Virus record (IMG/VR): IMGVR_UViG_3300046463_001154
Coordinates: 1-64,000 of that record
Source of the DNA: a virus
Strand: one strand, 5' to 3'
DNA length: 64,000 nucleotides
Shown: positions 20,238 to 63,760 of the stretch, piece by piece
How the letters are laid out: each line of letters begins with the position of its first letter
How positions within the stretch are numbered: the stretch's first letter is position 1
Notes under the pieces: model-generated
What the model was told of the DNA's origin: nothing
Databases searched by the model: none
Seen by the model: only the letters and a program-made list of their open reading frames with translations
Position numbers and translations under genes: made by a program

Positions 20238-20272
20238 GGGAAGAGGCCTTCGGGTCTCTTCCCTTTTTTTTT
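20238..20272 (+). terminator. Strong hairpin with T run, convergent on the RelE-like gene
   Basis: GGGAAGAGGCC-ttcg-GGTCTCTTCCC followed by a run of T. Confidence 0.75.
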
Positions 20273-20944: not shown

Positions 20945-21072
20945 CGATTGCCCCGTGGATTTTCTTCGAGTTACCGGTGCTCTGATGTTATCAGAGACTC
21001 GGCGAGGCTTCGCCGTCCGTTCTTTTTTTTATTCCTGCGTCGAATCGTGTACGAGAAAGCAAGGAATCCCCA

Positions 21073-51994: not shown

Positions 51995-52038
51995 GTGAAA
52001 CACGACGGGTCTCCGGACCCGTTTTTTTTGCTCAAAAA

Positions 52039-60566: not shown

Positions 60567-61016
60567 TCAGCGTGGCGACAAGCAGATCCGAACCCGCAAC
60601 TCCAATGGGTCGAGCCACTCCACGATCAAGGGATAGACATCATCCCATCGCAGCTTGCCTTCCCCACATCCGATCATCGGCATCGCGATAGACCGGATCT
60701 GATACTTTTCGAAATCGCGCGCGAGTCGTTTTAGACCTTCGTCGATCCAGTGAAGTCGAGATGGGTTGGCCCAATGACGCTTCGTCGGAAAGCAGACAAT
60801 CAGTTTCCCGTTCTCCGCTTCCCACACAAAGAGCCCGTGGTTTGAAAACACTCGCCGGCGGCACGCATCTCGATACGCTGCTTCAAGACCTGGATACCGC
60901 AAAGCGAAGGCTCTCGCCAAACCCTTGCCCATTGTACCCACTACGTTCACCGGCACCACCAACGCCTGACATGCCGAAGTGAAGACATCTTGCACAGATA
61001 CCTGCTCGATCATCAT
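60567..61016 (-). CDS. Macrodomain protein (DarG/TARG1-like ADP-ribose glycohydrolase), 149 aa
   Basis: PVNVVGTMGKGLA, FPTKRHW, SIAMPMIGCGEGKL motifs. Confidence 0.9.
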   Translation of the reverse strand: MMIEQVSVQDVFTSACQALVVPVNVVGTMGKGLARAFALRYPGLEAAYRDACRRRVFSNHGLFVWEAENGKLIVCFPTKRHWANPSRLHWIDEGLKRLARDFEKYQIRSIAMPMIGCGEGKLRWDDVYPLIVEWLDPLELRVRICLSPR

Positions 61017-61369
61017 CCCTCCGCCATGCGCTGAATCTCATCGACCACGTCTTCCTGCGTCTTCGCGTTGCTCTGTTGACGCTTGAGCGACATCTCTAAA
61101 ACGAACCGTACGATGTCTGACGGCAGCTCAAGGAACTCCACCAGGTTCAGACCAAAGTGCTTGTAGACTTGCCGCTCTTCGAATCGCCGAATCTGCTCGT
61201 ACAGAAGACCGCCCGACGAACTATCTTCCGCCTCCCGCATCGCGACCAAAGAGAGCGCGTCATTGGGACCCGATCGCGAGTGATCGTAAATGCGGTAGGT
61301 GGTTTCGTAGCAGTCGCGCAGCGCCAGCTGCAGGTCCGAAGAATTGAGCACGGTGGGCGCGCGTTCCAT
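61013..61369 (-). CDS. Tail-assembly-chaperone 'T'-like ORF, possibly translated as a -1 frameshift extension of the gp77-like gene
   Basis: VYKHFGLNLVEFLELP motif; its frame stays open upstream to the T7 run at 61483-61489. Confidence 0.6.
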   Translation of the reverse strand: MERAPTVLNSSDLQLALRDCYETTYRIYDHSRSGPNDALSLVAMREAEDSSSGGLLYEQIRRFEERQVYKHFGLNLVEFLELPSDIVRFVLEMSLKRQQSNAKTQEDVVDEIQRMAEG

Positions 61370-61437
61370 TGCGGCCTTCAGTGGATTCTCTTCCTCGACG
61401 TGCTCGCCAAAGTCTGGCTGCGCGACGTGCCGCGGTC

Positions 61438-63030
61438 TTAGTTCCGGAGGGAGATCTGGCTGATTTTCTGTTCGAGCAGGGTAAAAAAAGTCTGCTCGAC
61501 GTTCATCGGCAGCAGATGCGGGAAGCGCGGCAACTGGTGCTCTTCCTTCGTGTTCGCCGTCGGCGTTGCGATCACAGCCATCGTCGAATCGTTGATGTAC
61601 TTCTTCACCTCGTCGAAGTACTTGCGACGAACTTCGTCGTTGCTCGACAGGTCATCGATAATCTTCTCGATGGTTTCGCGATCCACGATCGTGCCTGCGC
61701 CGGGATGAACTTCAGCCACCCAGTGGATGTACTGGCGCATGTTGGTCGCCTTGCCGTGCTGAATGATGAAGTTCGTGCGGCGCTGATCTTCCGGAGGCAA
61801 CTGGAACGCTTCATCGACCACGCGCGTGATCTCGCTGATCCACTTGTAACCCGAGAGCACGTAGTCGTTGGCCGCCGGCACCTTGAGCGTTACCGCGATA
61901 TGCTCCGACAACTGAACGCGACGCGGCTGACCCAGCGTGAACTCGGTCTTGTAACGCTTCACTGCGTCCGCCGTCATCGTGCCGCTGCCGCGATGTGCCA
62001 TGTGCGAGATCTGCCACGACGTGAGCGCCTTGGTGTCGACCCAGAGCAGCTTGCCGACCGCGAGCTTCTCACGCAGCATCTTTTCCTCGTTCGTGATCGG
62101 ATCGAGGTACGGGCGAGCGTATTGGAAACCACGCGGCCAGATGGCACATGCGAGACCCCAGAACAGCAACGGCAAGTCGGGCGTTTCGATCATCGACTTG
62201 ACGCGATTCATGTCCTTCTCTTGGAGCGACGTGTCGTACACATGTTCCATGGCGAAGTCGAGCAACGCGCCGCTGAGATAAGAAGAGGTATTCGCGAAGG
62301 CCAGGCCGTTGGTGGTCCGACCCATGACGATCTTCTCGTCGAGCATGCGACGGTTCAGTTCGAGCAGACCGATCTCGGACGGCGCCTTGACCGTGATATG
62401 GAAGCCCGAATGCCACAAGGGCACTTGGATCGTGCTGCCCATGCCGAGCAGTGCGCGGACCTGCAGGACCGCCTTCTCACCGGTGAGCAGTTCGCCGCCG
62501 ACGTTCTTGAACGACATCGCGCCCATGGCGATATTGCCGCGCTCGGACTTCACACCCTGACGCCACTCGCTGCCGGAGCGATCGACCGCGTCACGCCACT
62601 GATCTTTGTTGGGTGCGCTCATCATGCTTTCACGCATGTAGTCGACCCACTCGCGACCGCTTTCCGTATCGGTCAGATCGAGGTTCGGCATGGCGGCGAT
62701 TGCGCGCGATGCACGGTCCTGCGTGTCGGCCTGGCCGATCAGGAACACGCCGTTCGTGTCCCACTCGCCATCGAGCGCGAAGAACACCTCAGCGTCCTGC
62801 TGGGTAGTTTCCGACGGCGACAAGTGACCGATGCCGGCGATCTCCTGCTCTTCGGACTTGTCTTCAGCTTCGGCTTCCGGAGCGAACGTCGCCTCGTAGT
62901 CCGTTTCGATCGTGTCCATACCGAGGACAGGCGCGCTGTGGCTCTCGACCGCCGGAATGACCGCCGAACCGTCGATAGGCTCGGCGTGGGTGAACGATGC
63001 GTTCACCGGATGTTCTTTGTGACCACTCAC
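61438..63030 (-). CDS. Conserved phiKZ gp77-like protein (putative tail/baseplate assembly chaperone), 530 aa
   Basis: VPLWHSGF, GRTTNGLAFAN, LACAIWPRGF, RQYIHWV and C-terminal FFTL motifs; GAGG RBS; core synteny resumes here. Confidence 0.75.
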   Translation of the reverse strand: MSGHKEHPVNASFTHAEPIDGSAVIPAVESHSAPVLGMDTIETDYEATFAPEAEAEDKSEEQEIAGIGHLSPSETTQQDAEVFFALDGEWDTNGVFLIGQADTQDRASRAIAAMPNLDLTDTESGREWVDYMRESMMSAPNKDQWRDAVDRSGSEWRQGVKSERGNIAMGAMSFKNVGGELLTGEKAVLQVRALLGMGSTIQVPLWHSGFHITVKAPSEIGLLELNRRMLDEKIVMGRTTNGLAFANTSSYLSGALLDFAMEHVYDTSLQEKDMNRVKSMIETPDLPLLFWGLACAIWPRGFQYARPYLDPITNEEKMLREKLAVGKLLWVDTKALTSWQISHMAHRGSGTMTADAVKRYKTEFTLGQPRRVQLSEHIAVTLKVPAANDYVLSGYKWISEITRVVDEAFQLPPEDQRRTNFIIQHGKATNMRQYIHWVAEVHPGAGTIVDRETIEKIIDDLSSNDEVRRKYFDEVKKYINDSTMAVIATPTANTKEEHQLPRFPHLLPMNVEQTFFTLLEQKISQISLRN

Positions 63031-63058: not shown

Positions 63059-63760
63059 TTAGACGGTCGGCACGCCGACGACCTGACCGACGTTCTCGTC
63101 GTTGAAGGTCACATCGGTGATCTGGTTCACGTCGAGCACAGCCGGATCGACTGCGAGTTCCGGCGCATCGCCGTTGAGCTGGCCGCCTGCCGCACGAGCG
63201 CGGCCGCGTGCGAGTTCTGCCTGGTTCGTCGCTTCGAGGATGTGATAGACCGTCGGCATAAGGACGCCGTCGTGCTTCGTCATCCACAGGTTGTACTGCT
63301 CGAAAATGTGGATCGAGTGCAGAACTTCTTCCGGATCATCGCTACCGCCGACCTTGCCCGCGTGGAGCGCGCGCAGCTTCTGCAGCTCATCGCTCAGTTG
63401 GCGCAGGTCGCTCGCGAACTGCTTCACGTTCGTCTTGAACGTGTCCTTTTCCTCGACGAAGGTCATCAGCTCGGCGTCGTTCAGCACGAGCGAGATGTCC
63501 GTGTGACGAAGCAGCATGCCCGACATCTGCTGGTAGACGCCGACGAGGTCGTCCCAGCAGGTGTTCTGCTCTTGCTGCGAGTTCGTGCCCGCACGGCATT
63601 CCGCAAGGATGCGATCGGCTGCCGACATCGTGAACGAGCCATCCGTGTTCTTCGTCGGCTTGATCGGCTGATTCACCGCCATGCTTACCGAATGGATGGC
63701 CGGCTTGCGCTTGCCCTTTGCGATGTCGCGCTGAATGCGTGCTTGACTCTTCTTGGTCAT
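63059..63760 (-). CDS. Hypothetical helical protein, 233 aa
   Basis: Strong phage codon bias; upstream of the gp77-like gene. Confidence 0.7.
   Translation of the reverse strand: MTKKSQARIQRDIAKGKRKPAIHSVSMAVNQPIKPTKNTDGSFTMSAADRILAECRAGTNSQQEQNTCWDDLVGVYQQMSGMLLRHTDISLVLNDAELMTFVEEKDTFKTNVKQFASDLRQLSDELQKLRALHAGKVGGSDDPEEVLHSIHIFEQYNLWMTKHDGVLMPTVYHILEATNQAELARGRARAAGGQLNGDAPELAVDPAVLDVNQITDVTFNDENVGQVVGVPTV

Follow-up and report, generated by a model that had tools for sequence, protein, structure and literature searches.

A predicted programmed -1 frameshift at a conserved T run in the gp77-like core gene of phiKZ-like phages

We analysed a stretch of viral DNA of 64,000 nucleotides (nt) (positions 1 to 64,000 of IMG/VR record IMGVR_UViG_3300046463_001154; hereafter the window), which is part of a 79.8-kb IMG/VR metagenome contig. 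On its minus strand lies a homologue of phiKZ gp77, that is, of core gene cg18 of the nucleus-forming phage family, and shortly before its stop codon this gene carries a run of seven T residues, which we predict with fairly high confidence to be a programmed -1 ribosomal frameshift site. A -1 event at the run very probably joins the gp77-like gene to the next open reading frame (ORF), as an earlier note made from the letters of the window had proposed: judged from sequence, the two-frame layout is present in all 84 distinct loci compared, the apparent spacer between the two ORFs is coding sequence that lacks a start codon, and the T run is kept against codon bias. Beyond this, we infer the ribosomal nature of the shift, its efficiency and the need for both forms of the protein.

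Reading frames at the T run and their conservation

The gp77-like gene (61438..63030 with the stop codon, minus strand) was recognised as an ORF whose translation of 530 amino acids (aa), the short product, matches phrog_4585 with an E-value (E) of 4.6e-102. Around the run the minus strand reads GAG CAG ACT TTT TTT ACC CTG, with the T7 at 61489-61483 (A7 on the plus strand). The slippery heptamer T_TTT_TTT (61483..61489), which falls on the 0-frame codons ACT TTT TTT, is the proposed shift site; its two Phe codons encode residues 515-516 and are followed by 14 further codons and a TAA at 61440-61438. The -1 frame is open from 214 nt before this stop down to a TGA at 61015-61013 and reads FFYPARTENQPDLPPELRPRHVAQPDFGEHVEEENPLKAAMER. 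The extension that begins at the run in this frame comprises 156 codons and the TGA (61013..61483, minus strand), and together with residues 1-516 from the 0 frame it gives a predicted long product of 672 aa. The segment 61438..61482 (minus strand) is dual-coding, since its 0 frame gives the last 14 residues and the stop of the short product while its -1 frame gives the start of the extension (YPARTEN...), and both readings are conserved in relatives. A gene caller sees only a small ORF of 118 aa here, from an ATG at 61369 to the same TGA (61013..61369, minus strand; phrog_12109), which represents the C-terminal three quarters of the conserved extension. This ATG is in the -1 frame relative to the gp77-like gene (61440-61369 = 71). 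The earlier note had described the codons CAG ACT TTT TTT ACC with the A7 at 61483-61489, a -1 frame open from there into ATG 61369, a fused product of about 670 aa, and a TTT TTT that is unusual for this gene, and the sequence bore out each of these points. For Phe the gp77-like gene uses TTT twice, both times at the slip site, vs 16 TTC, and the long ORFs of the window contain 94 TTT vs 373 TTC codons. At the 57% guanine-plus-cytosine (GC) content of the window, the composition-based chance of an open -1 frame is about 2e-3, and the +1 frame is likewise open, for 74 codons. An open frame by itself is thus not rare in the window, and the evidential weight comes from conservation.

We therefore turn to the relatives. 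The comparison covered 12 annotated phage loci (FLC9, FLC1-1B, RP12, RSL2, phiKZ, PhiPA3, Noxifer, AgentSmith, Deimos-Minion, Moabite, phiEaH2 and Caitlin), to which 77 IMG/VR loci were added, and the layout was counted over the 84 distinct loci with a readable 3' end, made up of the window, the 12 named phages and IMG/VR contigs and ranging in GC from 25 to 59%. Aligning gp77 3' ends in search of a kept slippery run and an open -1 frame had been suggested as a check, and both features were found in all 84 loci. Each locus has one T5-T8 run, always at the homologous FF position and 30-118 nt (median 49) upstream of the stop codon that ends the gp77 homologue; read from this run, the -1 frame of each locus has 151-193 open codons (median 164). 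As a control, the +1 frame was read from there too; its median length is 13 codons overall and 4 codons in the 27 loci with GC below 0.40. For these 27 AT-rich loci, the composition-based chance of the open -1 frame is about 3e-6 per locus, and the frame opens just 1-20 codons before the run. In phiKZ (35% GC), for example, it opens 12 nt before the T7 and runs for about 170 codons, of which the public record annotates only the last 80, as gp76.4, with a start that omits about 90 conserved codons. None of the 12 relatives' records annotates a frameshift, two separate genes being given instead, and a full-text literature search found no paper that links phiKZ gp77, cg18 or chimalliviruses with frameshifting, in agreement with the earlier remark that no such description was known for phiKZ-like phages.

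In most relatives, what looks like an intergenic spacer is conserved and coding, yet has no start codon. When 73 extensions were aligned, conservation extended over their whole length, from the run onward, beginning with FYP.R, continuing with HV....FG and passing into a domain with an E(F/Y)L.LP-like motif, and it covers the part upstream of every annotated ATG. The HV....FG-like motif is present in most loci, and the F of FG is kept in more than 90% of the 73 sequences. In the window the motif reads HVAQPDFG (61406..61429, minus strand, -1 frame) and lies between the gp77 stop and ATG 61369, and the stretch from the opening of the -1 frame to the motif is free of ATG, GTG and TTG. The same interval lacks all three start codons in 64 of 87 loci and lacks ATG in 80 of 87. 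A profile search of 1.84 billion representative proteins recovered 1851 clusters with the extension domain. The proteins of the best 150 of these clusters are all 106-186 aa long, and their called N-termini begin anywhere from profile position 1 to 55, as would be expected if gene callers chose internal starts arbitrarily. An in-frame fusion holding the extension was found neither among proteins longer than 339 aa, which is weak evidence, nor in the best 150 of the 1851 clusters. Since no longer protein with the extension was found, the two-frame layout appears to be maintained and not resolved into a fusion.

The T run itself is selected at the nucleotide level and kept against codon bias. 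In loci with a GC of at least 0.5, the TTT:TTC ratio for Phe is 62:11 at the site vs 101:473 elsewhere in the same genes, and in 121.6 kb of gp77 genes there are just three further runs of at least six T. When the 84 distinct loci were classified by motif, 65 had T_TTT_TTN, two had G_GGT_TTT and 17 had an in-frame T_TTY tetramer; both loci of the G_GGT_TTT class have a T8 run that likewise contains T_TTT_TTT. The codon preceding the run varies (ACT, GTT, ATT, GGT) and the phase of the run varies with it, with an in-frame slippery motif always there. Even in AgentSmith, where the 0 frame encodes VFL (GTT TTT TTA) at this position, the run is still kept. Heptamers of the type H_HH.U_UU.Y rank with the most efficient -1 motifs of E. 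coli, where U_UU.C and U_UU.U take second and third place among the tetramers, and some insertion sequence (IS) elements use U_UU.U_UU.C (PMC4066793).

Proposed mechanism and alternative explanations

Based on these observations, we suggest the following course of translation. Most ribosomes would pass T_TTT_TTT unshifted and terminate 14 codons further on, yielding the 530-aa short form, which would end in a conserved amphipathic helix. A fraction of the ribosomes would slip one base back while at the two Phe codons, where tRNA-Phe would re-pair with the UUU of the -1 frame, and would then read 156 more codons to give the 672-aa long form, in which the last 14 residues are predicted to be swapped for a linker with the HV....FG motif and a helical domain. 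In the AlphaFold2 (AF2) model of the gp77-like body (predicted local distance difference test score, pLDDT, 85.7; predicted template modelling score, pTM, 0.84), the last helix in the short form (H511-528) has the slip site at its beginning, so that the long form would exchange the tail of that helix for the linker and the helical domain. The AF2 model of the extension is likewise helical (pLDDT 82).

The extra base could also arise during transcription, if phage or host RNA polymerase added one U within the T run and so produced a subpopulation of mRNA with the extension in frame. We consider this transcriptional slippage unlikely. A homopolymeric T7-T8 run is a classic slippage site, and it is pure in 62 of 87 loci, but the run is only T5-T6 in the other 25, which is short for efficient slippage, and all of these have an in-frame U_UUY motif, as would suit slippage by the ribosome. 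The multisubunit RNA polymerases of chimalliviruses are unusual, and E. coli genes avoid U7 in every frame, for which such slippage may be the reason (PMC4066793); however, the run holds a constrained position in the reading frame, and a slipping polymerase would not need this. The available RNA sequences also speak for an unedited run. In assembled contigs from four independent RNA-seq studies of phiKZ-infected cells, for which the phiKZ-like phage locus L078 (99.15% identical to phiKZ across the locus) served as reference, the T7 is crossed without an insertion or deletion, and gp77 and the extension are carried together on one piece. Since such contigs hide minority variants, the unedited run excludes bulk editing only. 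We additionally observed that RNA contigs of two independent studies end at L078 3768-3784, no more than 16 nt apart, just where the -1 ORF stops and the genes switch strand, which is a weak hint of a transcript 3' end.

A less probable explanation still is that there is no recoding, that the small ORF is an ordinary gene with its own start at ATG 61369, and that the run and the open frame are by-products of the FF motif and of base composition. Public records do annotate two separate genes, the window ATG is usable, with AAGG seven bases upstream of it, and an open frame arises by chance often enough in GC-rich genomes. This explanation, however, does not account for the long open frames of the 27 AT-rich loci, for the protein-level conservation of the start-less region, or for the use of TTT against codon bias, and it leaves unexplained the constant -1 phase in 84 of 84 loci, although the 0-frame tails end at quite different distances after the run. 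The conserved codons that the annotated start of phiKZ gp76.4 leaves out also speak against it. Homopolymers are error-prone and the window comes from a metagenome contig, and the earlier note had named a homopolymer sequencing error as something that would overturn its reading. The idea that a single gene of 672 aa was broken in two by such an error, or by a recent frameshift mutation, can nevertheless be practically dismissed, since the split is identical in every relative, including the finished isolate genomes of phiKZ, PhiPA3 and RSL2. A relative contig of 91% identity (L011) carries the identical T7, the searches described above recovered no in-frame fused version, and the short form's own tail of 14 residues is conserved in relatives.

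Several observations weigh against a programmed ribosomal frameshift. The run is only T5 in eight loci, and some of the P-site codons (GTT, CTT) re-pair poorly. In the window, a separate 118-aa product may be made from ATG 61369. In the 75 nt after the run, downstream RNA structure was not enriched (mean z -0.28 vs -0.16 to -0.47 in controls), and upstream Shine-Dalgarno-like 4-mers were not enriched either (11% vs 18%). Since no stimulator is enriched, the efficiency of frameshifting may be low; stimulatory elements are not obligatory for -1 frameshifting. A CUGC-NNNN-GCAG hairpin located 3 nt after the run in some GC-rich loci was rejected as evidence, being explained by conserved codons.

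Fold, possible role and comparison with known frameshift systems

The gp77 body is weakly suggested by predicted models to be distantly like the T4 gp26/gp51 baseplate-hub assembly chaperones. Sequence searches of the PDB with both proteins gave no match, Foldseek against the PDB gave no match at E <= 0.001 for body or extension, and VIA-align in wide mode against the PDB reached best Z scores of 5.2-6.0 on isolated helices, which are non-specific. When the body model was compared with BFVD by Foldseek, its own family was followed by about 20 T4-like models named 'baseplate hub assembly chaperone / hub subunit', 245-290 aa in length (E 1e-4 to 1e-2, probability 0.97-1.0, target TM 0.41-0.55), the likeness covering part of the 530-aa body only and involving predicted models on both sides. 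PF12322 (T4_baseplate) was the ESM Atlas lead for the body; it is matched by two of 73 relatives (best E 5.3e-5), the window protein giving no match at E up to 0.1. The IMG/VR record of the window gave no PF12322 match either, a result of no weight, as the controls were equally negative. By hhalign, the gp77 family aligns with the T4 gp26 family with a probability of 16% (E 0.0016, 71 columns), and it is the C-terminal 70-90 residues of the gp77 family that align with T4 gp26 and its family, including CPxC and a terminal FFxLL. Against T4 gp51, hhalign gave only a 14-column CxxC match (probability 3%), which we rejected. Both T4 proteins, gp26 and gp51, count as chaperones of hub assembly (PMC3004832, Table 2), and the NCBI name for T4 gp26 is 'baseplate hub assembly chaperone'.

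The likeness to the T4 proteins has clear limits. Both families have four cysteines in two pairs, and T4 gene 26 also gives two products. However, the T4 proteins are 208 and 249 aa long vs 530 aa for the gp77 body, and the second product of gene 26 (annotated as 26') arises by internal in-frame initiation, so that the two share a C-terminus and not an N-terminus. T4 gp26 has no T run at its FF (TTC TTT), and T4 has no homologue of the extension; hhalign of the extension against T4 gp51 and gp26 showed no relation. The C-terminus of T4 gp26, CPECGKTHAHVIRGLKEFFELL (L090 5803-5830, minus strand), echoes CPxC ... FFTLL of the gp77 family, and the stop of T4 gene 26 overlaps the ATG of gene 25. 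The T4 gp26 family has two invariant Cys pairs, CxC and CxxC. Of 73 sequences of the gp77 family, 49 have cysteine in each of four columns (C..6..C and CPxC) and 24 have it in none of the four; the window is one of these 24, and the columns fall there at residues of about 308, 315 and 494 (61441-63030, minus strand). Because this sequence pattern is all-or-none, it suggests a Cys4 metal site that may have been lost as a unit in one clade.

By analogy, and because of the fold likeness to T4 gp26/gp51, the short and long forms would most likely be a pair of non-virion assembly factors for the baseplate hub or the tail, a role with modest support. As with lambda G/GT, their ratio would be fixed, through an N-terminal body that both share and a C-terminus that differs between the forms. 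An atlas of the phiKZ virion that covers 40 proteins makes no mention of gp77 (PMC13250141), which is consistent with a non-virion factor. Two points count against this role: the hhalign probabilities for gp77 and gp26, at only 16-31%, are a weak basis for a chaperone function, and the Churi homologue is listed among early-expressed proteins in a proteomic study (PMC11849849), which sits uneasily with a purely late morphogenetic role.

A conserved -1 frameshift is found in the tail assembly chaperone genes of long-tailed phages, as in lambda gpG/gpGT and P2 E/E+E', and the lambda G/GT site needs no stimulator. The gp77 site resembles lambda G/GT in that the slip site lies a few codons before the stop of the first ORF, giving a short and an extended long form with a common N-terminus (for gp77, as a layout of the sequence only), in that no RNA stimulator is evident, in that the layout is kept across a whole phage group while sequences diverge, and in that the product is a probable non-virion assembly factor at a fixed ratio. 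It differs in its body of 530 aa vs about 100-150 aa, in its location, which is not between the tail tube and tape measure genes, and in its slippery motif, U_UUU_UUY and not G_GGA_AAG. No Pfam family, chaperone families included, was matched by the window proteins, and the 13 Pfam families to which any of the 73 relatives gave a match include no tail assembly chaperone family, although a remote kinship may exist. In size and position the gp77-like gene thus does not fit a tail assembly chaperone of the lambda G/GT type, and the family searches gave no match to one. Of the tail assembly chaperone label given in the earlier note, what stands is the distant gp26/gp51 likeness of the body; the G/GT type found no support. 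Its suggested comparison with chaperone families had the same mixed outcome, with no tail assembly chaperone family on one side and, on the other, the weak gp26/gp51 likeness seen by hhalign and in the BFVD fold. The T-domain-like motif FGLNLVEFLELP that it had seen in the downstream ORF was not borne out, as the helical extension matched nothing specific in structure or profile comparisons.

E. coli dnaX (tau/gamma) and IS3 orfA/orfAB are also comparable, being bacterial -1 shifts on an X_XXY_YYZ heptamer that yield two proteins with a common N-terminus. In contrast to the gp77 site, where no stimulators are detectable, these systems require flanking ones (a Shine-Dalgarno-like element, a hairpin or a pseudoknot), and in dnaX the shifted product is the shorter one. 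The most fitting description of the gp77 site is that of a predicted -1 frameshift on a U run, conserved and free of stimulators, which lies in a large gp26/gp51-like core gene of Chimalliviridae.

A wider proposal, which we advance tentatively and find slightly harder to accept than to doubt, is that all Chimalliviridae and at least 1851 metagenome extension clusters depend on an undescribed stimulator-free U-run -1 frameshift in cg18, which would yield a giant gp26/gp51-type assembly chaperone in two forms at a fixed ratio. The G/GT principle would then have arisen independently, or be ancestrally shared, in a T4-like baseplate-hub pathway, and the extension would have been overlooked for want of a start codon. 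Recognition of the frameshift would add a conserved domain of about 160 residues to the core proteome and would mean a corrected annotation for all phiKZ-like genomes; in the public records that were read, the extension figures as a truncated small ORF. It would also offer a testable handle on tail or baseplate assembly in phages that serve as models (phiKZ, Goslar and PhiPA3) and in therapy, and would carry the lambda G/GT logic of a short plus a frameshifted long chaperone into another protein family and into jumbo phages with contractile tails. It would, finally, provide a natural stimulator-free U_UUU_UUY site, conserved in phages with hosts from Bacillus to Pseudomonas, for the study of intrinsic ribosomal slippage.

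Gene identity, neighbouring genes and other homopolymers

The identity of the gp77-like gene was examined by tblastn, which matched 172 phage records, all of them from phiKZ-like jumbo phages and PHIKZ077 among them. In the list of 72 core genes of the nucleus-forming phage family, phiKZ gp077 is cg18, listed as 'hypothetical protein', with Goslar gp081 and RAY gp267 as counterparts, and the downstream small ORF or extension is absent from that list (PMC10299810, Table S3). The genes called 'gp77' in the Goslar and PCH45 papers were set aside as unrelated.

In the window the gp77-like gene is flanked by a gp78-like gene and a Macro-domain gene, while gp77 of phiKZ has gp75 helicase, gp78 and gp79/gp80 as neighbours, and RNA polymerase subunits are found there in relatives. 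The upstream gene of the window (63059-63760, minus strand, 233 aa) belongs to phrog_28433, has no Pfam match and is the positional counterpart of phiKZ gp78; in the 12 annotated relatives, too, the gp77 homologue has a gene in the gp78 position upstream of it on its own strand. Other homopolymers in the window include T9 at 20264, T8 at 21023 and T8 at 52022 (plus strand), with nine further runs of at least 7. The gene 3' of the extension (60567-61016, minus strand) encodes a Macro-domain protein (PF01661, E 1.1e-10; phrog_335 'phosphatase'), and its ATG overlaps the TGA of the extension (ATGATGA). This gene looks like a clade-specific insertion, because relatives carry other genes at this position.

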